Origin: an uncultured Bacilli bacterium
GTDB taxonomy: Bacteria; Bacillota_I; Bacilli_A; RF39; UBA660
Reading direction: 5' to 3'
Assembly (NCBI GenBank): GCA_949841325.1
Contig: CATKZK010000004.1
Coordinates: forward strand, 1 to 63,179
Length of the DNA: 63,179 bases
The position numbers and the translations under genes were made by a program. Positions 2,615 to 57,903 of this stretch are shown here, one piece after another. The number at the start of each line of letters is the position of its first letter. Position 1 is the stretch's first letter. The notes below the pieces were generated by a model, which was not told where the DNA came from, made no database searches, and saw only the letters and a list, made by a program, of their open reading frames with translations.

Positions 2615-2638
2615 ATTAAAAAGAAAGGAATGATTAAA

Positions 2639-5050
2639 ATGTATAATTTTAGAGAAATTGAAAAGAAATGGCAAGGTAAATGGTATAACGAAAAGAGTTT
2701 TAAAGCAATAGATTTTCATCCAACCAAACCAAAATATTATGTTCTATATGAGTTCTATAATATTAGTGGTAATCTACATATGGGGCATTTGAAAGGAACA
2801 GTCCCTGCAGATGCATTAGCTAGAATGAAAAGACTTCAAGGATATAATGTATTGTTTCCAATAGGTGGGGATTCTTTTGGATTACCTGCAGAAAATGCAG
2901 CTATAAAAACTGGTATCAATCCTAAAGATTTTGTTGATAATGGAATGAAAAATGCAATAGAGCAATCTAGAAAAATTGGACTTTCATTTGATTATGATAG
3001 AAGTTTTTGTACTAGTGATGAAGATTATTATAAATGGACACAATGGATTTTTCTTCAACTTTTGAAAGAAGGTAAAGCATATAAGGAGAAAGGTGTTGTA
3101 AACTATTGTCCAAATTGTAAGACAGTACTTTCGAATGAAGATAGTCAAGGTGGAGAATGTGATAGATGTCATGGTCAAGTCGTACAAGAAGAAAGATGGG
3201 TTTGGTTTCTAAAAATGAAAGAATACTCTGAAAAACTACTTGGAAATATTGAGAGAATTGATATGAATGAAAATCTAAAAGAACTTCAAAGAAATTGGAT
3301 AGGAAAATCAGAAGGTATGCAAGTGTCTTTTGATATAGTAGATGAAAATAATAATGTAATTGATAATGCTGGTATATTTACTACTTGTGTAGAAACTATT
3401 TATGGTATTACTTTTCTTGTAATGGCTCCAGAGCATAATTTTATTGAAGAACACAAAAATAAAATTCTAAATTATGATGAAGTATGTGAATATAAAAAAG
3501 AAACATCATATAGAAGTGAACTGGATAGAATGGCTAATCAAAAGGAAAAAACAGGTTGCCTTGTTCAAGGAATCTATGCAATAAATCCTGTTAATAATAA
3601 AAAAGTTCCTATATATCTAGCTGACTTTGTTCTTTCAGGATACGGTACAGGTATAGTTATGGCTGTTCCTACTCATGATCAAAGAGATTATGAATTTGCA
3701 AAAAAATTTAATATACCAATGATTCAAGTAATTGAAGGAAATACTGAAAATCAAGCAGTTGAAAAATACGAATATATAAAAGATAATAGTAAAATGTTAA
3801 ATTCTGAAGAATTTACTGGAATAAATGTGAAAGACGCTAAAGAAAAAATTGCAGATAAACTTATTGAAATGGGTGTTGGTAAAAAGCAAATAAATTATAA
3901 AATGCAAGATTGGTCATTTAATAGGCAAAGATATTGGGGCGAACCTTTTCCAGTCGTTTTCTGTGATAAATGTGGTATAGTCCCGGTTCCAGAAAATGAA
4001 CTTCCAATTACTTTGCCTAAAACAGAAGATTATATGCCAAATGAAAAGGGAAATTCTCCACTTTCTAAAATAGAAGATTGGGTAAATTGTAAATGTCCTA
4101 AATGTGGAAAAAAGGCAAAAAGAGAAACTGATACTATGCCAAACTGGGCAGGTTCTTCTTGGTACTGGCTTAGATATTGTGATCCTCATAATAATGAATC
4201 ACTTGCTGATATAGAAAAACTAAAATATTGGGGAAGTGTTGATTGTTATACAGGAGGTACTGAGCATATAACTCGACATGTTCTATATGCATTCTTTTGG
4301 CAAAATTTTTTATATGAAATAGGTGCAGTTCCTACAAGAGATCCATTTAAAAGAAAAATGGGAAGTGGATTGATTCTTGATGATACTGGAAAGAAAATGA
4401 GTAAGAGTTCTACAAATGGTGTATCACCAATAGAAGTAATTGATAAATATGGTAGTGATGTTGCAAGACTTCATGTTCACTTTTTGGCGGCATATGAAGA
4501 TAATACTCCTTGGACATATGATGGAATAAATGGCATAACTAATTTTATAGATAAAGTTTGGAATTTGCAAAATATGATTAAGGGTACTGAAATCTCTACT
4601 GAACATATTTATGAAACCAATAATTTGATAAAGAAAGTAACAGAAGATATAGAAAATCTTAAACTTAATACTTGCATATCAGCTTTTATGACTTTTATAA
4701 AAAAAATTAAAGAAGATAAATTTATAAGTAAAGAAGAACTAAAAACATTCCTAGTATTATTAAATCCTTTGGCTCCCCATATTACAAGTGAAATGTATGA
4801 AATAATTTTTAAAGAGAATATTATAGATGTAGAGTGGCCTAAATTTGATGAGAATTATTTAATTCGTGATGAAATTAATCTTCCTATTCAGATAAATGGA
4901 AAAATGAAAAAAACACTGTCTGTTAGGAAAGATGCTACCCAAGATGAAGTTATAAATTTCATAAAGAATACATATCCAGAATTAATATGTGGTGAAATTA
5001 AAAAAATTATTTACATTCAAGGTAAAATAATCAATATAATGTGTAAATAG
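2639..5050 (+). CDS. leuS: Leucyl-tRNA synthetase, divergent
   Basis: HMGH and KMSKS class I motifs; GDSFGLPAEN; CP1 editing motif GYGTGIVMAVPTHDQRD; Zn knuckles; C-terminal PIQINGK; start moved to ATG 2639 behind RBS AGAAAGGA. Confidence 0.92.
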   Translation: MYNFREIEKKWQGKWYNEKSFKAIDFHPTKPKYYVLYEFYNISGNLHMGHLKGTVPADALARMKRLQGYNVLFPIGGDSFGLPAENAAIKTGINPKDFVDNGMKNAIEQSRKIGLSFDYDRSFCTSDEDYYKWTQWIFLQLLKEGKAYKEKGVVNYCPNCKTVLSNEDSQGGECDRCHGQVVQEERWVWFLKMKEYSEKLLGNIERIDMNENLKELQRNWIGKSEGMQVSFDIVDENNNVIDNAGIFTTCVETIYGITFLVMAPEHNFIEEHKNKILNYDEVCEYKKETSYRSELDRMANQKEKTGCLVQGIYAINPVNNKKVPIYLADFVLSGYGTGIVMAVPTHDQRDYEFAKKFNIPMIQVIEGNTENQAVEKYEYIKDNSKMLNSEEFTGINVKDAKEKIADKLIEMGVGKKQINYKMQDWSFNRQRYWGEPFPVVFCDKCGIVPVPENELPITLPKTEDYMPNEKGNSPLSKIEDWVNCKCPKCGKKAKRETDTMPNWAGSSWYWLRYCDPHNNESLADIEKLKYWGSVDCYTGGTEHITRHVLYAFFWQNFLYEIGAVPTRDPFKRKMGSGLILDDTGKKMSKSSTNGVSPIEVIDKYGSDVARLHVHFLAAYEDNTPWTYDGINGITNFIDKVWNLQNMIKGTEISTEHIYETNNLIKKVTEDIENLKLNTCISAFMTFIKKIKEDKFISKEELKTFLVLLNPLAPHITSEMYEIIFKENIIDVEWPKFDENYLIRDEINLPIQINGKMKKTLSVRKDATQDEVINFIKNTYPELICGEIKKIIYIQGKIINIMCK

Positions 5051-5108: not shown

Positions 5109-5204
5109 TAAAGTTGTAGATTACTTCTCCAATGGCACTAGATTGATTGTTACTCGAACCTTTCAGTGAGAGTGAAAGCGACTTGATAAAAACACGTTTT
5201 TATG
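5109..5204 (+). repeat. Repeat copy F with extended trailer
   Basis: TAAAGTTGTAGATTACTTCTCCAATGGCACTA-GATTGAT..ACTCGAAC; 5179-5204 is 22/26 identical to the tRNA-Cys terminator hairpin (reverse complement of 25037-25062) at nearly the same spacing from the CCA-like end. Confidence 0.75.
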
Positions 5205-5288
5205 ATATCACGAATTTTGTAAAGGGCACTTGCATAACAAAAAAAGGGAATACTTAACATTGAAAAGTTGAGTACTCACCAAATTGGT

Positions 5289-5328
5289 ATGCACTTAATC
5301 TTGTTTTGATTGAGTGCATTTTCTTTTT
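5289..5328 (+). terminator. Intrinsic terminator
   Basis: ATGCACTTAATC/GATTGAGTGCAT stem followed by TTTCTTTTT. Confidence 0.7.
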
Positions 5329-5413
5329 ATAATTCATTATTATTTAATAATAGAAGAATAGGTAGAATGGCAATAACGATTAAAGTAACGATTAGAGAAT
5401 CTTTCATAGTCAT
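5327..5413 (-). CDS. Putative 28-aa hydrophobic peptide MTMKDSLIVTLIVIAILPILLLLNNNEL
   Basis: ATG 7 nt after the stop of the 5421..6353 gene; one TM-like stretch; weak RBS. Confidence 0.35.
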   Translation of the reverse strand: MTMKDSLIVTLIVIAILPILLLLNNNEL

Positions 5414-5420
5414 TTTTCAA

Positions 5421-6353
5421 TTACTTTCTTCTTTTTTCAGTTGTATAATCTGAAAATTTACTTATTTTTGCTGATGATAGTTTGGATAATAAATCTTTTT
5501 GTAAAATTTCTATTTCTTTTTTTGTTATTTCTTGATTTTCTAAATAATATAAATTTTTAACAAAATCATATATACTTATTTTATTTTTCTTTTGTAAAAG
5601 TGATTTTGCAAAAACAAATCTTCCAACTTGGGATATTAAATCATAAAAATTCTTTTCTATTCCTTTTTTTTCAAAGAAATTGTATATAGTATCAAAAAAT
5701 ACATCCCATTGACTATTGGAAATTTCTAATGGTGGTAGATTATACACAATAGCATAAGCATCTATTTCTCTTACTACTTGTACCATAGTTTCCTCTTTAT
5801 CTAGATAATTTGTATCATTTTCAATAAGTGTTAAGTTTGGATAGTCCTTATTTATCTGTCTTTGTTGTTTTTCTAAAGCTTCTCTATATTTTTTTTCTTT
5901 TTCCGTTTCAACATAAGTTTCTTCTTTCTTTATGAAGGATTCATATTTTTCGCTATAGAAATCTTTTCCTTTTGCTTTTCCAATACCTTCTTGCAATATT
6001 TTATCTACGTCCTTTTCTTGTTCGATTTCAAAAATATTAGAATTGGATTTATAATGATTTGAAATTAAACTTTTTGCTTCAATAATAAAATCTTTAGTTA
6101 AAGTTGCAATAGTTCCAACACCAGTTATACTTGAACCGATGATTAATATAGTCGGATTTTTAAAAATTAAAAATCCAATATATGATAAAATTAGTGGACC
6201 AATAAATAAAACAACTTTCTTTAATCTACTTCTTAAATCTTTTTTCATAGCATTATCAAAGTTGTTTATAAAATCTTCCATTTGAACTAATTGAATTTCT
6301 GCATTTAAATTTTTAATTTTCTTTTTATCGTTTTTTTTATTCATATAAATCAC
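5421..6353 (-). CDS. Hypothetical membrane protein (two N-terminal TM helices)
   Basis: 310-aa ORF with two hydrophobic segments; no family recognised. Confidence 0.6.
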   Translation of the reverse strand: MIYMNKKNDKKKIKNLNAEIQLVQMEDFINNFDNAMKKDLRSRLKKVVLFIGPLILSYIGFLIFKNPTILIIGSSITGVGTIATLTKDFIIEAKSLISNHYKSNSNIFEIEQEKDVDKILQEGIGKAKGKDFYSEKYESFIKKEETYVETEKEKKYREALEKQQRQINKDYPNLTLIENDTNYLDKEETMVQVVREIDAYAIVYNLPPLEISNSQWDVFFDTIYNFFEKKGIEKNFYDLISQVGRFVFAKSLLQKKNKISIYDFVKNLYYLENQEITKKEIEILQKDLLSKLSSAKISKFSDYTTEKRRK

Positions 6354-6525
6354 ACTCTTTTTCTATCTATTGTAATTATATCATGAATAAGTACATTTTT
6401 TTAAAGATTTTGTTTACAATCGAAGTCTATGATATAATTAATGTGGTTTTATATATCGTATAAAAATGAGGTTATTCTAATAAGCTCTATTTTAAAATAT
6501 GTAAATGTAATGGAGGAGATCTATA

Positions 6526-7502
6526 GTGATTGGATTTGAAGATTCTCAAAAAAGAATATTTGAAGAAAACATAATAATCATACAGGTGGGGTATTATATA
6601 AGTGTCCTGCTAACATCAGTAAAGGATTCAACTTTGAATATTGCATATTTATACCAAATGGTGTAAATATGCAAACAAGTCTTTTAATTCAAATTCCTAA
6701 TTATAGTGCAAGTATAAGAACAACTGATATTGATGAGCGGACAGATTATATATTTGAAATTTTTAAAGGATTCAAATCGCATATTCACTTATGTAATAAC
6801 AGTTCTAAGTTTCCTATTTTATATCCTTTGTTTCCAAGAAAATGGGATGATTCTAAAAGGGAAGAAATATTTACCCATATGTTGTCAAGTAATGCTTTAT
6901 TTTATAATGATGAAAAATTTACTAGAGTGGATATTCAATTAATTAATATCATTAATGACGTCAAAAAAAGACTTGAATCGAATAATATTAACATAGATGA
7001 AAAAATTATTATTGAAGGCTTTTCGGCAACTGCTAAATTTGCCAACAGATTTACTTTATTACATCCAGAAATAGTAAAATTATGTATTGCAGGTGGTATT
7101 GGTGGCTGTTTAACTTTACCAATTCGAAAAATAGAAGGTGAAAATTTAATATATCCAGTTGGGATAGGGAATATTAAGGAAATAACTGATAAAAAAATAG
7201 AAGAATTTAAAAAGATTAAGCAATTTTATTACCAAAGTATAGACGATAATATTGATGCCTTTATTAGCACTACTAAAACATCTTATACGCCTGCTAATCC
7301 AGGAGTAATAAAAGAAGAATTAAAGCAGCTTTATAATTATTTAGGTAGAGATATGATGAATGAACGTTTCAAAAATACAAAAAAGATTTATATAAAGAAA
7401 AATGTAAATGCAACATTTAAAATATATCAAACTGGTGGGCATAGTCCTATGGTGGCAGTAGAAGATATAACAGATTTATTTTTGAAAGAGGTTAGAAAAT
7501 AA
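6526..7502 (+). pseudogene. Alpha/beta-hydrolase-like gene with a 5' frameshift
   Basis: RBS GGAGGAG then GTG 6526; adding one base near GAAGAAAACATAAT (about 6564-6575) joins it to the 6669 frame (…KGFNFEYCIFIP…); nucleophile elbow-like IEGFSATA, IAGG, C-terminal GGHS. Confidence 0.55.
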
Positions 7503-7557
7503 TAAATTATTCATTATGTAATTATATGGGAAAAATTAAAAAAAGCACATAAGAAAA

Positions 7558-7605
7558 CCTATAAAGAAAACTCGTATAAGATGAGTTCCTTTATAGGTTA
7601 TTTTT
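7558..7605. terminator. Hairpin between convergent genes
   Basis: CCTATAAAG…CTTTATAGG stem with adjacent T tract. Confidence 0.6.
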
Positions 7606-7606
7606 T

Positions 7607-8812
7607 TTACTTTCTCATTCTTCTTTTTTTCCTATTATGTTTTCTTCTCTTTTGAATATATAAAACAAGTATTAAGATTACTATAAGGATATATCCATAT
7701 TTTTTTACTACTTTTTTCCAAGAAATTTTTAAGTCTTCTTTTAAGAATAATTCTTCTTCTTTTATCAATTCACCATTATAAAAATATTTGATAGAGCCTA
7801 ATTTAGATTGCTCTTTATCACGAAATGACAATTTTTCTTTGCCATTATACTGGTAATCAAATAAGCTATTATCAAAATCCTTTGGTAAATATTTCGTAAT
7901 GTTTTCATTTGGGTGGACTTTATACATATCAGTTTTTGAAAGAGATACAGGAAGTTCAATAATAGTGTCCTCTGTTGTCATGAGATTTTGATTTTGAAAA
8001 TGCGAATCAAGAAACTGAGTGAGTGCAAGTGCATCTTTTAAATTGTAAAAATTTCCATAGACATAAGGAGCTCCCATTGTGATGATGAGTACTTCATGTC
8101 CGTTTGTAGATATCAAGGCTGCAATACATACCCCAGCTTTAGAAGTATATCCAGTCTTACTTCCTAGAATTCTTGAAGTATCTAGATTCATAAGACGATT
8201 ATACACTTTAATTGTAGCATTGATTGTTTTCCCATTCGCTAGAGTATATTCTTTCGTACAATATATTTCTTTAAATGTCGGATTTTGTAAAGCATATTTT
8301 AAGATGAGTAATACATCAGACGCTGTACTATAGTGATTTTCTATATCAAGTCCTGTAACGTTTACAAAGTGTGTATTTTTAGCTCCTATTTTTTCTGCAA
8401 GCGTATTCATTTTTTCAACAAAAGCAGCAATGCCATTAGAACTTGTAAACGCTAATGCTTGGGTAGCATCTGCTCCTGAAGGCAAAATAGAGGCATAGAG
8501 TAAATCACGTGCCGAGAAAGTTTCTCCAATGTTTAACCCTGCAACAGAGGCATCATAAGGGATACCTGCAAGCATGTCACTAGTAATCGTAACTTCTTTT
8601 TCTAAATCAGGAATTTCTTCAATTGCCGTGATAGTTGTCATTATTTTAGTTAGAGAAGCAATATTTGCTCTTTCATCACTATTCTTTTCTAATAGAAGTT
8701 TATCTTCTGTTAAATCATAGAGTAATACTTTGTCCGAATAAGTGTCTGGCAAGGCAATCGCACTTACAGATATGGGAATTAAACATAAAATGAATAAGAC
8801 TATTTTTTTCAT
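7607..8812 (-). CDS. D-alanyl-D-alanine carboxypeptidase (peptidase S11, low-MW PBP)
   Basis: SLTK (SxxK), SGA, KTG motifs; signal peptide; C-terminal TM anchor. Confidence 0.9.
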   Translation of the reverse strand: MKKIVLFILCLIPISVSAIALPDTYSDKVLLYDLTEDKLLLEKNSDERANIASLTKIMTTITAIEEIPDLEKEVTITSDMLAGIPYDASVAGLNIGETFSARDLLYASILPSGADATQALAFTSSNGIAAFVEKMNTLAEKIGAKNTHFVNVTGLDIENHYSTASDVLLILKYALQNPTFKEIYCTKEYTLANGKTINATIKVYNRLMNLDTSRILGSKTGYTSKAGVCIAALISTNGHEVLIITMGAPYVYGNFYNLKDALALTQFLDSHFQNQNLMTTEDTIIELPVSLSKTDMYKVHPNENITKYLPKDFDNSLFDYQYNGKEKLSFRDKEQSKLGSIKYFYNGELIKEEELFLKEDLKISWKKVVKKYGYILIVILILVLYIQKRRKHNRKKRRMRK

Positions 8813-14460: not shown

Positions 14461-15849
14461 TTGAACGATCTTTTTAGCATCCAAAATAAACGATTAGATG
14501 ATACGTAAATAGAGGCTATTCAAAGTGATAGCTTATCCACTTTAGTGGTAGCAGGAGCAGGATCTGGAAAAACATTCACCATAATGGGAAAAGTTAAATA
14601 TCTGATTGAGAAAGAAGGCTATAAGGAAGATGAAATTTTATGTATTTCTTTTACAAATGAAACAGTTAAAAATTTATATGAAAAACTTTTGGAGCTTGGA
14701 TATGAAATTGAAGTAAAAACTTTTCATAAATTAGGCTTGAAGTTTTTAGAAGGGGAAAACTATACGATTGTAGAAGATTCTTATTTAGGTTACATTATAG
14801 ATGAATATGTTCGCTCATTTATTCAATATGACAAGAAGAGAGTACGTCTTTTTAAAAATATTTTATATACAGAAAAATCATTTTCAAATCTTTTAAAAAG
14901 CCAAGAGTATAAGAATTTAAAGAAAACAATGATGAATTTTATTAAGTTGGCTAAGAGTAATCACTTCACTATTCGAGATATTTATGATGTTTATAAAAGA
15001 AGCTGGTTTAATGAAAAATCACTACTAAAGAATATTTTAGATGTTTATATGATTTATGAAAGAGAGTTAGAATCCTCTTTGAAAATTGACTTTGATGATA
15101 TGATTACAAAGGCAATAGAAAACGTTAGAATTACTGATATGCGATATAAATATATTATTATAGATGAGTTTCAGGATACTTCGATGATTCGCTATGAACT
15201 GATTCAAGAAATTGTAAAATATACCAATTCGCGTGTTTTTGTTGTTGGTGATGATTGGCAATCTATTTATCGATTTAGTGGATGTAATTTAAAACTCTTT
15301 CTTCATTTTAATCAGTATTTTAAAGAGAGTAAATATTTCTATTTAAAGTATACTTATCGAAACAGTAACGAGTTGATTCATGTATCATCTCAGTTTATTA
15401 TGCAAAATAGAAAACAATTAAAAAAAAGTATTCTTTCACAGAAGAATTTAACAAAACCCATTGTTATTCTTTTTTCTTATACAGTTTCTGAAATACTTTC
15501 CCTTATTCAAGGGGAAGAAATCTTAATATTAGGCCGAAATAATGCTGATATTGCTTCTGTTGATTGGGAAAACAAGCTTACCATTCATCGATCTAAAGGA
15601 TTAGAGGAAAAAAATGTTATTTTAGTTAATTCAGATTCGATTCCCAATGTCATGCAGCAAGAAAGAATCATGCGTCATGTTTTAAAAGACAACGATTATA
15701 TTTTATACGAAGAGGAAAGAAGACTTTTTTATGTCGCATTGACAAGAACAAAAGAACGAATCTTTATTCAGGTTAATAGAAAGATAAGTCCTTTTGTCAA
15801 AGAATTGATGCGAGATTATAGGCAATATGTTACTGTATTAAAAAAGTAG
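14461..15849 (+). pseudogene. UvrD/HelD-like superfamily 1 helicase with in-frame TAA at 14506-14508
   Basis: RBS AGGAGGTG plus TTG 14461 in frame with ORF 14545; LDDT*IEAI where the Q-motif Gln is expected; AGAGSGKT, DEFQD, YVALTR. Confidence 0.75.
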
Positions 15850-24000: not shown

Positions 24001-24108
24001 AATTACATAAAAAATCATCTCAAAATGAGATGAACTGTATTAAAATGTTCGAAATATTCGAACAGATTCGTCAATGGAGCCCTAAGGGAGGAGGTACAAC
24101 GACTTTTT
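24001..24108 (-). repeat. Repeat copy G with palindromic trailer
   Basis: Reverse complement AAAAAGTCGTTGTACCTCCTCCCTTAGGGCTCCA (28/34 to copy E), then TGTTCGAA-TAT-TTCGAACA and a CATCTCA/TGAGATG hairpin plus TTTTTTATG; starts 2 nt after the stop of the 24111 gene. Confidence 0.8.
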
Positions 24109-24110
24109 AA

Positions 24111-24659
24111 TTATAATTTATTCATAATTTTCACAAATTCATTTTTTAAATTGTTACTTGGATCAACTATTATTTTTACGTCTTCTAGTAAATTAACAGT
24201 GTTTGTATTTCCTAGTAGCCAAACAGGAAATGCGTTATATTCTTCATTGTCAATCATACCATATATTTTCCAATAATTATTCTCTTTATACATTACAACA
24301 TAGTAATAATCATTTTGTGTAAACCCAAAGTTAGACTTTCCAACATATTGAACAATACCCCATAAATCCTTATTATTTAGTTTAATCATAGAATTTTTAA
24401 AATCCACAATTTCTTGCTTAATTTTTGGATATTTTACAAGCCATTCATCAATTATTTGATAGAAATCTTGATAAGTTTTATATCTATAATAAGGATACGT
24501 ATTAATCATATTAGTATATTCTTCAATCTTTCTTAACAAAACTTCATTCCAAACAAACATTTCTTCATTATATTTTCGATGATATTTTAAAACATTATAT
24601 TTCTTATGAGTTTCTGGAATATAAATATTACTTATAATTTTATTATTATTGAACATCAT
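24111..24659 (-). CDS. Hypothetical protein (cargo between tRNA-Cys and repeat G)
   Basis: 182-aa ORF, RBS TGGAG. Confidence 0.6.
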   Translation of the reverse strand: MMFNNNKIISNIYIPETHKKYNVLKYHRKYNEEMFVWNEVLLRKIEEYTNMINTYPYYRYKTYQDFYQIIDEWLVKYPKIKQEIVDFKNSMIKLNNKDLWGIVQYVGKSNFGFTQNDYYYVVMYKENNYWKIYGMIDNEEYNAFPVWLLGNTNTVNLLEDVKIIVDPSNNLKNEFVKIMNKL

Positions 24660-24825
24660 TCGTCTCCAATCATATTGTCTTTGACAATATGCAAGTGTAT
24701 TTTTTAAATTGACATAGTTCAGTCAATTTTATTATGTTATATAAATTTATTCAGTATAATTCTTGTAGGCAATATCAGTTGTTGAGTGTCCGCCGAATCT
24801 CTTATAGTGAAGCGGTTTGATAAAA

Positions 24826-24924
24826 ATGAAAACTAAGACTTTTGTAGTGAAAGTTCTAAAGCTCATTGCTATCATTTTATTTCTCCTTATCATTATGATA
24901 GTAGTTATAAAAAATGACACTTAA
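24826..24924 (+). CDS. 32-aa single-TM peptide, type I toxin-like (MKTKTFVVKVLKLIAIILFLLIIMIVVIKNDT)
   Basis: Hand-translated; TTGACA promoter at about 24709, structured 5' UTR (CCGC…GCGG), hairpin over the stop. Confidence 0.5.
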   Translation: MKTKTFVVKVLKLIAIILFLLIIMIVVIKNDT

Positions 24925-25036
24925 TTCTTCATTGAATTAAATGTCGATCTAATTAATTTGGGTAGACATTCAATATTGCAAAACTGAATGTTCCCTTTTT
25001 TATTTTATGCAAGTTTCCTTGACGTATTCATAATAA

Positions 25037-25102
25037 CATAAAAACGACTTTTTGACAAGTCGTTTGGTATTGTTACTCGAAAGTTCGAGTTTCCTATCAA
25101 TC
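25037..25102 (-). terminator. tRNA-Cys trailer: ACTCGAA-CT-TTCGAGT palindrome plus AAACGACTT/AAGTCGTTT terminator
   Basis: Two inverted repeats directly 3' of the tRNA CCA; homologous to repeats D and F. Confidence 0.7.
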
Positions 25103-25176
25103 TGGAGGGGCCTAACGGATTTGAACCGATGATCAGGGAGTTGCAGTCCCACGCCTTACCACTTGGCTAAAGCCCC
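25103..25176 (-). tRNA. trnC: tRNA-Cys (GCA)
   Basis: 74 nt, GGGGCTT acceptor stem, anticodon loop CTGCAAC, T-loop GGTTCAAATCC, U73 discriminator, encoded CCA. Confidence 0.97.
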
Positions 25177-25526
25177 ATGACATAATTGATTATAACATGA
25201 TTTATAAGCGATTTCAATATATTTTATGCGTTAGTCAGCGCCTTTATTCCTAGTGTATTTTAATACTAGTAAAAGTTTTCTCTTGTTAAAATAAAATATA
25301 CAGTTTGGTGATATACAAAATAAAACATGGTAGTTATACTAATGATAGTATGATGAATGATTGTTTAATATCTATTGGGGACCCTTAAGTTCAATTTTTT
25401 TTGTTGGAATAAGCACGTCCTCGAATTTATTAAGATGAAATTATATATTGAGGACATCTAGTGGGTTAAACACGTAATGGTGTCTATATATGTACCAAAG
25501 TTTTAATCTAGAAAGGAGGAATCTAT

Positions 25527-49536: not shown

Positions 49537-51822
49537 ATGGCGAATGGTTATTTGACAGGTTGCGCTTTGGCGATTTGTATTCTAATTTGTATTGTATATT
49601 TTTTAAAAGAGCGAGTTGATAATAAAGAAACAAAATTATTTCAGTATATGATATTTTGTAATCTAGCAGAGAGTTTTTTTACGAATATGATTGTTTTAGT
49701 TGCTATGACAGTAAATTCAACTTTTCTATTTAAAATTTTGAATCGCCTAGATGTAATGGCTATTATTTCATGGTTAACTCTTATGTTTTTATATATTAGC
49801 AATGTTTATAATGGGAATGAATATGATAAAACGAAAAGATTTATAATGATAGTAGATTCTATTTTTTTCTTATTTACTTTAATTTTAGATGTGGAAATCA
49901 TTGCATCAAATGAAGTCTTAGATTCAAAAGGACCTCTGCCAAATTTTGCGTTACTCGTAGGAGGGTTTTTCATTGTTCTAATGCTTTTGCGAGTTTTTAC
50001 AAATAAGAAAAAAGATTTTTTTAATAAGAAATTAGTGCCTATGTATTTCCTTATTTTTTTCCTTATTGCTATGGTTTTCTTGCGACTTGCTTTACCAAGT
50101 GTAAATTTCGTATCAATCATTATCAGTTTTGTTAATTTAATCATGATCTTTACTATTGAAAATCCAGATATAAAAATGATAAATGCATTAAACGAAGCTA
50201 AACTTTCTGCGGAAAAAGCGAATAGGGCTAAGTCAGAATTTTTAAGTAATATGTCACATGAAATTAGGACACCTTTAAATGCAATTGTTGGGTTTTCAGA
50301 TTGTATATTAGATGAAGACACATTAGAAAGTGCTAAGGATGATGCTAAAGATATTAAACTTGCTTCTGAAAATTTGCTAGAAATAGTAAATGGAATTTTG
50401 GATATTTCCAAGATTGAGGCAGACAAGATGGAAATCGTTGAAACAAATTATCATCCAGTCGAAATTCTTGATAATGTAGCGAAACTTATAAAACCGAGAA
50501 TAGGGGAAAAGCCAATCGAATTAATCGTTAAGTATGCACCTGATATACCTTATACGATTTATGGAGATGGTGGAAAGTTAAGGCAAATCGTTACAAATAT
50601 TTTAACGAACGCTGTTAAATATACAGAACAGGGACATGTTGTTTTGTATGTGCATTGTGTTAATGAAGGGGATTTTTCTAAATTAATTATCTCTGTTGAA
50701 GATACGGGTAGAGGAATTAAAACAGAACAAATTGATAAGCTATTTACGAAGTTTCAAAGACTTGATGAAGATAAAAATACGACTTTAGAGGGAACGGGGT
50801 TAGGACTTGCTATCACAAAACGTTTTGTTGAGATGATGGGTGGAAAGATAGTGGTTCAAAGTAAATATGGTGAAGGATCTAAATTTACTGTTTATATAAG
50901 ACAAAAAATAGTGGCGATGAATAAACTTGAAGATGAAGAGATAAATGAATTCAATACGACACAGATTAAATTATACGATTTTTCTGCAGCACGTGTTTTG
51001 GTAGTTGATGATAATAAAGTAAATATTAAAGTAGCTTTAAAACTATTATCAAATTATGGTATTAAAGCAGACTCATGTGATAGTGGCTTTGAGGCTGTCT
51101 CAAAGGTTCAAACAGGTTCTAGCTATGATCTAATCCTACTGGATGATATGATGCCAAAAATGAGTGGGGTAGAAACGTTACAAAAGATTAGAGAAAGTGT
51201 AGTATATGATATTCCCGTTGTTGCTTTAACCGCGAATGCATTGTCTGGTATGCGAGAAAAATATTTAGCTGAGGGCTTTGACGATTATTTAGCTAAACCT
51301 ATTGAAAAAAACGAACTGTACCGTATTTTAATTACCTTCTTAAATAGAGAAACCAAGAAAAAGGAAGAAGTGATTGATACATCAGTCAATATAAATGAAG
51401 AAAAAGAGAATGTAGAAAACACTACTATAGTTCAAAAAACAGTAGATGATGAGAATAAGAAAAACATTCTAGTAGTTGATGATAACAAGATTAATATTAA
51501 AATCGCAAAAAAACTATTGAGTCATAATGAATGTTTAGTAGTTGATTCAGCCTTATCAGGCGCAGAAGCTATTGAAAAGGTAAAGAGTAAAAAATATGAT
51601 TTAATATTTATGGATATCATGATGCCTGAGATGGATGGAGTGGAGACTCTTCATAGATTAAGAAGATTGGGCTTTACCAATCCAATTGTAACTCTTACGG
51701 CAGATGCGGTTTCTGGTTCACGTGAAAAGTATTTAGCTGAAGGCTTTGATGAGTACATATCTAAACCAGTAAGTACTGAGGAAATCGATATTATAATAAA
51801 TAGATTTGTTATGAAGGATTAA
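49537..51822 (+). CDS. Hybrid sensor histidine kinase with 7 TM-like segments and two receiver domains
   Basis: [26 protein letters not shown]; two REC domains (LLDDMMP, FMDIMMP). Confidence 0.9.
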
Positions 51823-57026: not shown

Positions 57027-57800
57027 TTATTTATTTTTGATTGAATTTACAACGATGACGATGATACCAATTGCTTCAATAACGAGTGATAAAATCACTA
57101 GATTATTGGTAAGTGCATATGATAGATTTAAGGAACTCGTTAAGTAAGTTGTTAAAACTAATACAAATAAACCAACGATAATAATTAGTATTCCAATATC
57201 GATAAATTTATCACTTTTTGGTGTTTTTTCTTCTTTTACGACTTCATTTTTTTTCTTTTCTTCTTTTTTTGGTTCCTCTTTTACGACTTCCTTTACAACC
57301 TCTTTTGGTTCTTCTTTAATAGGAGGTACTACTGTTTTTGTTTTAGTAGGAGTTTTTGGTACTTCTACTTTTGCAGATGTTACGTTAGATGTTTCTTTTT
57401 TAGTCGCTTCTTTTTTTACCGTTTTAGGTGTTTCTGCTTTTTTTGTGGCAACTGTCTTTTTAGGAGCTTCCTTCTTTACTGGAGCTTTAGTAGTTGTTGC
57501 TTTTTTTTGTGTTTCCTTTTTAGTTGCTTCTTTTTTTTGTGTCTCTTTTTTTACAGGAGTTGCTGCAGTTTTTTTAGGAGTCGTTTTAGGAGCTGCCTTT
57601 GAAGTCTTCTTTGCACCTTCTTTTTTTACAGTCGTCTTTACCGTTTCTTTCTTTACAGGAGTTTCTTTTTTAGTCGTTGTTGTTTTCGTACTACTTGCTT
57701 TTTTAGGAGAAGCAGTTGTCGTTGCTTTTTTAGTTGTGTTTGTCTTTTTAGCAGTCGTTTTTGTATTTGTTCCTTTCTTTTTTTGATTAGTTTCTGCCAT
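57027..57800 (-). CDS. Lys/Thr-rich low-complexity (histone H1-like) protein with two C-terminal TM helices
   Basis: KKT/KKE/TPKK repeats, then KEE-rich linker and two hydrophobic helices. Confidence 0.7.
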   Translation of the reverse strand: MAETNQKKKGTNTKTTAKKTNTTKKATTTASPKKASSTKTTTTKKETPVKKETVKTTVKKEGAKKTSKAAPKTTPKKTAATPVKKETQKKEATKKETQKKATTTKAPVKKEAPKKTVATKKAETPKTVKKEATKKETSNVTSAKVEVPKTPTKTKTVVPPIKEEPKEVVKEVVKEEPKKEEKKKNEVVKEEKTPKSDKFIDIGILIIIVGLFVLVLTTYLTSSLNLSYALTNNLVILSLVIEAIGIIVIVVNSIKNK

Positions 57801-57903
57801 AATATTTTTCACCTCTATTACAATTATACAACAAATATGTCGATTTGGGACTAAAAAAGTATATTCATTTACAAAAACTCGAATATTTTATATAATAAGT
57901 AGG

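Follow-up and report, generated by a model that had tools for sequence, protein, structure and literature searches.

Probable attachment sites of small integrative elements directly behind tRNA genes in uncultured gut Bacilli

A stretch of 63,179 nt from an uncultured Bacilli bacterium (GenBank assembly GCA_949841325.1, contig CATKZK010000004.1, positions 1 to 63,179), hereafter the window, was analyzed. It contains one tRNA gene, tRNA-Cys(GCA), and seven copies of a short repeat, named A to G. The repeats and the tRNA-Cys end belong to one site family, which probably represents the attachment-site halves of small integrative elements. Within a clade of uncultured gut Bacilli, these elements would insert directly behind tRNA genes. 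Direct support was given by the family itself and its exact boundaries, by the co-occurrence of a recombinase, by one empty site, and by the same cassette found at two tRNA genes.

Site family and its boundaries

In a preliminary description of the window, the repeats had been linked to the tRNA-Cys end by three matches. The 27 nt starting at the tRNA-Cys CCA (CCAGATTGATAGGAAACTCGAACTTTC) matched copy D (1442–1468) at 26/27 positions, as described, and on both strands of the window only these two places reached at least 22/27. Copy G (24075–24108, minus strand) matched copy E (2325–2358) at 28/34 and begins 2 nt past the TAA stop of the open reading frame (ORF) 24111–24659. The layout reported for copy G was also found, i.e., CCA, the TTCGAATATTTCGAA palindrome, a second hairpin, and TTTTTTATG. 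The third match, between the tRNA terminator and copy F, was real but slightly weaker, 21/26 in the register used here instead of 22/26. The terminator lies 39 nt from the tRNA CCA and 37 nt from the CCA-like end of copy F, so the 2-nt difference stood and the values of 40 and 38 nt did not. Copy F and the tRNA-Cys trailer are homologous over approximately 290 nt (E = 7e-21), and the family recurs in more than 100 other genomes. The matches between tRNA-Cys and the array are thus far beyond chance. The proposed tie between the array repeats and a real tRNA 3′ end was supported, and the repeats behave as a family of recombination sites.

Further members were searched with a pattern from the part common to copy F and the tRNA-Cys trailer, i.e., CTTGCATAA N2-3 AAAAAAGGGAA, a 20-nt core. 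Among species-representative genomes, at least 119 stretches matched, nearly all from uncultured gut metagenome-assembled genomes labelled Bacilli, Bacillales, Tenericutes, or Mycoplasma sp. The core marks a small module, described below. Of about 115 modules, 46 start 88–92 nt past a tRNA 3′ end (14 anticodons), and others follow tRNA-like ends that are not tRNAs.

The sites are composed of two halves meeting exactly at CCA. The left half is a real tRNA 3′ end or a pseudo-tRNA end, and the right half is a trailer. Sixteen anticodons were counted among the real tRNA left halves, pooled over the module loci and the recombinase loci. Two pseudo-tRNA ends were distinguished, both resembling a tRNA 3′ half in degenerate form. 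PS1 (AAAAGTTGTTGAACGTCCTCCCTTAGGGCACCA, consensus end CACCA) is the commonest and is conserved across 18 genomes or more and also in copies E and G. It begins at or a few nt from the stop codon of unrelated genes, i.e., cupin, GNAT, TatD, and unknowns, and a trailer always follows. PS2 (AAAGTTGTAGAT..CTAC..CGCACCA) has a T-arm-like hairpin, and copy F is of this type. The trailers have approximately 12 nt to the right of CCA and then a hairpin, and were sorted into types T1 (GATTGATAGGAAACTCGAAC..), T2 (TTGACGAATCTGTTCGAACTATTCGAAC.., the type found after copy G), and T3.

Serine recombinase and empty site

At locus L066, tRNA-Leu is followed by a 91-aa ORF and then by a large serine recombinase of 637 aa, in which Pfam recognizes Resolvase and Recombinase domains. 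Relatives of this protein were found in 80 metagenome loci at 60–96% identity. The upstream flank was usable in 69 of these loci, and in 43 of them a T2 trailer directly follows the CCA of a tRNA. Nearly all of these tRNAs end 570–650 nt upstream of the recombinase on the same strand, and two end at approximately 1.1–1.4 kb. The tRNAs were Gly-tcc/gcc, Thr-ggt/cgt, Cys-gca (8 loci), and Leu-tag/gag/taa/caa, i.e., at least nine tRNA species, and several of the remaining loci had pseudo-sites in place of the tRNA. The preliminary description had pointed to tyrosine recombinases for a binding test; the recombinase co-occurring with the sites is a large serine recombinase. Its best sub-threshold NCBIfam matches were CcrB and XisF, with 126 bits against a cut-off of 900 bits for Ccr.

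The elements share one order, i.e., tRNA / T2, 91-aa ORF, large serine recombinase, PS2 / flank, over approximately 5–6.5 kb. The PS2 sites forming the right ends lie mostly 5.2–6.5 kb downstream, the distance being 4.4 kb for L194 and 11.2 kb for L156. In nine elements, the last 6–11 nt of PS2 equal the end of the resident tRNA, e.g., GCTCCA at tRNA-Gly and CGCACCA at tRNA-Leu. At the right end of L194, the tRNA-Leu 3′ half is copied faithfully, with identity over the last 31 nt. A plain terminator or a T1 cassette comes after the PS2 of the element. The latter is seen in L199, in the order tRNA-Thr / T2, ORF, recombinase, Mob_Pre (MobV) relaxase, ..., PS2 / T1, gene, PS1 / T2′. Because this member carries a MobV relaxase, the autonomous members are classed as integrative mobilizable elements (IMEs).

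The empty site was found in a contig of run X47, which joins position 9357 of L166 to position 14552. The 5,194 nt skipped are the predicted element, from the tRNA end to the PS2 end, and 7 nt at the junction (CGCACCA) fit both sides. In L066, the DNA past the real tRNA-Leu and the DNA past PS1 are near-identical from GCACCA on.

From these features, the most economical course of events can be proposed. The large serine recombinase would integrate the element, crossing over within the final few nt of the tRNA gene. The tRNA would keep its end, and its terminator would be replaced by a trailer supplied by the element. The far end would bring a pseudo-tRNA arm, of which the last 5–11 nt would copy the resident tRNA. 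Loss of the recombinase would then leave small units bounded by both site halves, and successive insertions would stack such units into arrays by accretion. The integrase-less cassettes may be moved in trans.

Two further observations were made at these loci. The T2 arm and the recombinase are always separated by a conserved ORF of approximately 91 aa (4126–4401 in L066, 9514–9792 in L199, and in most of L130–L209). This ORF had no Pfam or NCBIfam match and is a candidate directionality factor or regulator. In L016, a tyrosine recombinase gene (6408–8000) lies right after tRNA-Arg and a toxin-antitoxin-like module; therefore, the landing zone is also used by an element with a classical integrase.

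Cassettes behind different tRNA genes

Many copies of the family have lost the recombinase. Such cassettes run from a trailer through a type I toxin-antitoxin-like module, in some cases with a single cargo gene, to PS1, and they correspond to integrase-less cis-mobilizable elements. The cassette of the window runs from 25102 to 24075 and consists of a T1 arm, a toxin-antitoxin-like module, a gene of 182 aa, and PS1 (copy G). The cargo gene has 19 unnamed homolog clusters. Its closest homolog (85% amino acid and 89% nucleotide identity) lies in the same cassette behind tRNA-Met(cat) in L210–L213, and the distant homologs are not in cassettes. The tRNA-Met of L210 ends with ..GCGCTACCA, and the T1 arm that follows, GATTGACAGGAAACTCGAAC.., is 89% identical to that of the window. 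The order in L210 is tRNA-Met, T1 arm, a module with a different toxin type, toxin promoter, cargo, PS1, and then T2 with another module. The two tRNA genes have unrelated DNA on their upstream side. The PS1 ends TACCA in L210, as tRNA-Met does, and CTCCA in the window, as tRNA-Cys does. Therefore, the cassette has 5-nt repeats at both ends, copied in each case from the tRNA behind which it lies. The second cassette locus proposed earlier, from tRNA-Cys to copy G, was borne out by this recurrence with target-matched ends.

A similar pair was found in two different species. L037 and L023 have 1.26 kb in common at 95.5% identity (BLAST), comprising T1, the module, a gene for an MBL-fold protein (Pfam, in L037), and the start of PS1. 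The identity begins exactly at GCACCA / GATTG. To the left are real tRNAs in L023 and a pseudo-site in L037, and the flanks are unrelated. In dozens of other pairs, approximately 420 nt of arm and module are common at 88–96% identity, and the similarity ends at CCA. L014 and L114 have the module and PS1 in common up to the PS1 CCA and then carry different trailers. The cargo across cassettes comprises MBL-fold, GNAT, cupin, NUDIX, and TatD proteins and unknowns.

The cassettes could instead have been spread by homologous recombination or gene conversion between conserved trailers, modules, and pseudo-sites, e.g., after DNA uptake. The recombinase elements would then merely use the same landing zone. 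Such an origin would suit the many cassettes that have no recombinase nearby, as well as the shuffling of modules, since the window and L210 have the same arm and cargo and different toxin types. It would also suit the paralogues lacking cargo or toxin, which join at module boundaries, and the one similarity breakpoint that falls inside PS1. However, there is no homology between different tRNAs to the left of CCA, and the junction is nucleotide-exact in dozens of cases. The last 5 nt of PS1 also switch with the tRNA, as a staggered site-specific crossover leaves them. Spread by homologous recombination is therefore considered unlikely.

Some results weigh against site-specific integration by the serine recombinase. 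The similarity of L023 and L037 ends inside PS1 and not at CCA, but a contig ends 45 nt away from this point. Apart from their final few nt, the pseudo-sites are unlike their resident tRNA. No recombinase was present among the 25 most frequent of 60 Pfam families in the window. None was linked to T1/PS1-type ends, and all recombinase loci retrieved have T2-type left arms. The search for an empty site, which had been suggested for the window cassette, gave neither an empty site nor a circular form in 8 DNA runs. The cassette at tRNA-Arg of L066 likewise gave no empty site.

Site-specific integration at tRNA ends could be extended to a working system. In such a system, the mini-cassettes would not be dead remnants but part of an integron-like capture and exchange of genes. 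A promiscuous serine recombinase would act in trans, cassettes would dock at almost any tRNA 3′ end or pseudo-tRNA end, and the type I module would enforce retention. This extension is tentative and somewhat doubtful.

Among the loci compared, L094 and L074 showed two insertions in an otherwise syntenic region, one Abi-like and one MazEF-like by reading of the sequence. These insertions were considered and set aside, as they are unrelated to tRNA-type sites.

Trailer arms and hairpins

The trailer hairpin starts mostly 12–13 nt past CCA in all trailer types, and 47 of 53 trailers fold at z < −2. Among 97 arms, hairpin 1 has 48 different paired stems, e.g., GTTCGAA/TTCGAAC, ACTCGA/TCGAGT, GTTCTAA/TTAGAAC, CTTGGA/TCCAAG, and GTCCAGACT/AGTCTGGAT. 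The stem of hairpin 2 covaries too, and the 53 trailers have a hairpin containing G+C followed by a U run, as Rho-independent terminators do. In L018 (~5600–5700), hairpins 1 and 2 of a T1 trailer are separated by an inserted tandem repeat (AAAGCAAATATAA, approximately 5 copies).

The TCGAA/TTCGA palindrome of hairpin 1 had been suggested as the arm bound by the recombinase, with covariation as a check. The substitutions proved compensatory, which argues that hairpin 1 acts as a nucleic-acid structure. It is more likely a terminator or insulator of tRNA transcription than a protein-binding arm, judging from this pattern. Part of the palindrome could still lie inside the recombinase footprint. 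The approximately 12 nt adjoining CCA are the better candidate for sequence-specific contacts.

The same hairpins would suit a trailer that is simply the standard 3′ flank of tRNA genes in this lineage, next to a resident toxin-antitoxin locus. The pseudo-sites would then be decayed tRNA genes, and nothing would be mobile. The trailer does follow many different tRNAs of the lineage, which the preliminary description had counted as a point against mobility, but the probable reason is that the elements of a widespread mobile family carry it as their arm, and not that it is a generic terminator. The same arm also follows pseudo-sites right after unrelated protein genes, and cassettes 89–95% identical lie in unrelated contexts. 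The empty site fits the predicted element exactly, and the pseudo-sites gave no Rfam tRNA signal. A standard flank is thus very improbable and was largely refuted by L023/L037, the X47 empty site, and the L210 cassette.

Pseudo-tRNA ends

The arrays of single-gene cassettes, with a site directly past the stop codon and a hairpin, resemble integrons. In an integron-like arrangement, a tyrosine recombinase would capture the cassettes by way of attC-like sites in folded form, with the tRNA end in the role of attI. However, no IntI-like gene was seen among the 25 Pfam families mentioned above or beside the arrays in 119 loci, and a tyrosine recombinase was seen in just 1 of the 119. The sites lack the R″/L″...L′/R′ boxes and the GTTRRRY core and show instead an asymmetric pseudo-tRNA end with a trailer. 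The co-occurring recombinase is of the serine type, and an integron-like origin has hardly any probability.

A role of the pseudo-tRNA ends in RNA, i.e., as tRNA-like signals for 3′ processing or stability of the upstream mRNA and for release of a trailer RNA, deserves equally little credence: the ends finish in NCCA, promoter-like sequences lie just upstream of copies A and F, and PS2 has its T-arm-like hairpin, but PS1 has neither an acceptor nor a T-arm fold nor an Rfam tRNA match at E ≤ 10, and the target-matched last 5 nt and the empty site would be left unexplained.

The origin of the pseudo-sites was considered separately. Copies A to G had no Rfam tRNA match even at E ≤ 10, and tRNA-Cys alone was detected in the window both at the gathering threshold and at this relaxed limit. 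PS1 resembles the 3′ end of tRNA-Leu weakly, with a score of 12 against a null of 7.7 ± 1.7. A copy of the 3′ half of the resident tRNA was rejected as a source, as a score matrix of tRNAs by pseudo-sites gave no diagonal signal and the last 5–11 nt alone match. A phage origin was dropped as well, since neither PS1 nor the module core was found in IMG/VR. Single-strand transposition of the IS200/IS605 kind was also rejected, the left and right hairpins being unrelated and TnpA absent.

Toxin-antitoxin-like module

The aligned modules begin with a near-invariant consensus promoter, i.e., TTGACA or TTGTCA, 17 nt, and an extended −10 of TGtTATTAT. A GAAA-capped 5′ hairpin and then an A-rich stretch come next. 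The module hairpin has two covarying flavours, ACATTCAG/TTGAATGT or TACTTAAC/GTTGAGTA, with a U run after it on the opposite strand, and was kept with at least 8 bp in all 106 of 106 modules. On the opposite strand, 88 of the 106 have a hydrophobic ORF of 22–45 aa, and 78 of those have a Shine-Dalgarno sequence. Typically, the ORF encodes 27–32 aa that start Lys-rich, continue into a hydrophobic helix, and end in KK, e.g., MKTKTFIVKVLKLIAIILFLLIIMIVVIKK and MKKKDLLISFLILIIILLIVSLMILCIKK, and it lies behind a strong ribosome-binding site (GAGGAGG). Its diversity at the three codon positions was 3.99 / 1.69 / 4.75, position 2 being the least variable, as expected for a translated frame.

The peptides had no match to Fst or any other toxin family in Pfam or NCBIfam, and the module RNA had none in Rfam. 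The module is present in RNA-derived contigs, which carry no strand or end information. The conserved promoter and 5′ hairpin on the strand opposite the ORF predict an antisense RNA. On these sequence features, the module is a candidate new family of convergent type I toxin-antitoxin-like loci, and it may act as an addiction system. No relevant literature was found on type I toxin-antitoxin systems at tRNAs in Erysipelotrichaceae.

The par locus of the Enterococcus plasmid pAD1 (Fst, RNA I-RNA II) encodes a hydrophobic peptide of about 30 aa. Its mRNA and antisense RNA are convergent and have a common hairpin-terminator, and its leader has an anti-Shine-Dalgarno/Shine-Dalgarno hairpin. The same layout of peptide, convergent RNAs, and leader hairpin is predicted for the module. 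In contrast to par, its peptides have no Fst match, and its predicted antisense promoter is fused to the tRNA terminator. Such a fusion would link the antitoxin supply physically to tRNA transcription.

tRNA-Cys locus of the window

The G+C content of the window is 26–33% in 2-kb windows, mostly approximately 29%, and the runs containing its DNA are mostly mouse-gut metagenomes. tRNA-Cys was predicted by ARAGORN at 25103–25176 on the minus strand (59.6 bits in Rfam) as the sole tRNA of the window. Its 3′ end, ..CCCCTCCA, is the left, chromosomal arm of the attachment site. The element-borne T1 arm, of attL type, lies at 25066–25102 (minus) and reads GATTGATAGGAAA and then hairpin 1 (25075–25090, minus, ACTCGAACTTTCGAGT). 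Hairpin 2, the tRNA-Cys terminator, lies at 25040–25065 (minus, AAACGACTTGTCAAAAAGTCGTTTTT), and ATG... comes next in tRNA sense. Its loop holds the −35 (TTGTCA) of the predicted antitoxin promoter, for which the consensus places the −10 (TGTTATTAT) within 25029–25039 on the minus strand.

The conserved 5′ part of the predicted antisense RNA, ..GTCAAGGAAACTTGCATAAAATAAAAAAGGGAA, lies within 24991–25039 (minus). It is followed by the covarying hairpin at 24960–24995, which on the plus strand would be the terminator of the toxin mRNA, then TTTTTTATTTTATG. The toxin-like small ORF (MKTKTFVVKVLKLIAIILFLLIIMIVVIKNDT) lies at 24826–24924 (plus), behind a predicted toxin promoter (TTGACAATATGCAAGTG..) and 5′ untranslated region at 24681–24825 (plus). 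A peptide gene had been noted earlier at this locus. A conserved one is indeed present, but it lies on the strand opposite the tRNA and is type I toxin-like. A tRNA-sense ORF of 42 aa was rejected as the conserved peptide; it has a good Shine-Dalgarno sequence in the window, but its length and end are not conserved across copies, as those of the opposite-strand ORF are.

The cargo gene (24111–24659, minus, 182 aa) matched no Pfam or NCBIfam family. Copy G, the PS1 at 24075–24108 (minus), forms the right, attR-type arm of the cassette. It is followed by an orphan T2 trailer remnant, TTGACGAATCTGTTCGAATATTTCGAAC.., with a second hairpin, at 24009–24074 (minus). This remnant is the left arm of a serine-recombinase element that has lost its body. 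The promoter of a 225-aa gene comes past it. The segment 24075–25102 has attL- and attR-type ends and no integration or transfer genes, as has a cis-mobilizable element (CIME). The locus is thus an integrase-less derivative and appears to be an inactive remnant.

Some features of this copy were observed in addition. Over 24912–25179, the read depth was 10–20 times that of the flanks in four metagenomes, and contigs break there. Around the toxin ORF (24800–24924), the ribosome-binding site is degraded to GAAGCGG, against GAGGAGG in the family, and the C-terminus is ..IKNDT, against ..IKK. These two changes suggest that the window copy of the toxin may be silenced. Paralogues without cargo or toxin occur elsewhere in the metagenomes that hold window DNA. 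In runs X1, X2, X4, X6, and X13, a paralogous mini-copy joins PS1 (24079–24100) to a fragment of the toxin promoter (24681–24703). In X13, PS1 is also joined directly to the module core (24991 onward). Both the toxin ORF and the cargo are missing from the mini-copy.

Comparison with known systems

IMEs provide the closest framework. In a review of IMEs, integrase-less remnants (CIMEs) were described to keep both att sites and to undergo tandem accretion with incoming elements (PMC5704250). According to the same review, tRNA 3′ ends are targets of IMEs with tyrosine recombinases, and IMEs with serine recombinases insert inside protein genes and disrupt them (PMC5704250). The elements studied here are like the IMEs and CIMEs of streptococci in being small, integrated, and equipped with both integrase and relaxase, in entering old att sites and so building arrays, and in the common toxin-antitoxin cargo. 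They are unlike them in using a serine recombinase at the extreme 3′ end of at least nine tRNA species, which stay undisrupted, and in leaving remnants of 0.4–1.3 kb. The family thus fits the IME/CIME framework and differs in the recombinase class for this target, the breadth of tRNAs, the conserved pseudo-tRNA arm, and the tiny module-carrying cassettes.

In staphylococci, the staphylococcal cassette chromosome (SCC) is inserted by the large serine recombinases Ccr at the 3′ end of the conserved gene rlmH/orfX without inactivating it. SCC elements have short flanking direct repeats, composite arrays, and recombinase-less pseudo-elements. In contrast, the targets here are the ends of many tRNA genes and not rlmH/orfX, and the recombinase scores far below the Ccr cut-off, as given above. 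Tyrosine integrases insert genomic islands and prophages at tRNA genes. These too leave the tRNA intact and carry a partial copy of its 3′ part at the far end, as L194 does. Unlike these, the present elements have the serine class of recombinase, and their far end is usually a conserved but degenerate PS1 or PS2 of which the last 5–11 nt match. Integron cassettes likewise combine single genes, promoter-less or self-contained, with a recombination site in stacked arrays, and toxin-antitoxin cassettes are thought to stabilise large arrays of them. In the present family, there is no IntI, attC architecture, or fixed attI/Pc platform.

The family would explain a repeat that breaks assemblies in widespread uncultured gut bacteria, and it gives rules for annotation. 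It would show a route by which single genes travel between species in the clade. A serine-recombinase family docking at many tRNA ends without damage would use a target class that has been assigned to tyrosine recombinases (PMC5704250). Such short, universal, and non-disruptive targets are of practical interest for integration tools.

Copies A to F and other features of the window

Copies A to F, at 0.2–5.4 kb on the plus strand, form a second pile, older and more decayed, in which no tRNA is visible any longer. Copy A (212–244) is a PS1-like pseudo-site followed by a plain terminator. Copy B (402–460) consists of a pseudo-site (402–433) and a T2-like arm (434–460). Copy C (1206–1237), a decayed pseudo-site ending CTA, is a paralogue of B within an 81-nt repeat of 78% identity. 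Copy D (1412–1491) has a pseudo-site (1412–1444) and a T1 arm (1445–1491), and its toxin-antitoxin module is deleted. Near it, an inverted repeat at 1539–1573 survives as a leftover of the toxin promoter and 5′ untranslated region element seen at 24681–24825. Copy E (2325–2386) consists of PS1 (2325–2358) and a T1-like arm that has decayed. The stop codon of a broken cargo ORF (1813–2337) falls within this copy, and a relative of that ORF adjoins a pseudo-site in L011. Copy F (5109–5413) has a PS2-type pseudo-site (5109–5140), a decayed T1 arm (5141–5201), a module core (5229–5250), and a toxin-like ORF (5327–5413, minus). Its trailer is decayed, with a fold at z = 0.1.

A cargo-like ORF (496–1140) between copies B and C has a HELLH (HExxH) motif and no Pfam or NCBIfam match. 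The leuS gene (2630–5050) sits between copies E and F. Upstream of leuS (2465–2625), a leader ORF of 30 aa, rich in leucine (MKNIIVNNNLLLALLLNRLCSNGSILSAIK), is accompanied by a hairpin that resembles a terminator, and Rfam detected no T-box. The leader ORF and hairpin suggest that this LeuRS gene is controlled by leader-peptide attenuation in a Firmicute-like genome.

At 57027–57812, dense short T-rich direct repeats lie inside a minus-strand ORF, which probably encodes a repetitive protein rich in Lys and Thr. Pfam receiver domains were found in two ORFs of the window. The ORF 49537–51822 contains an internal duplication at 50996–51767 with approximately 75–79% identity, and it may encode a hybrid sensor protein with a double receiver.

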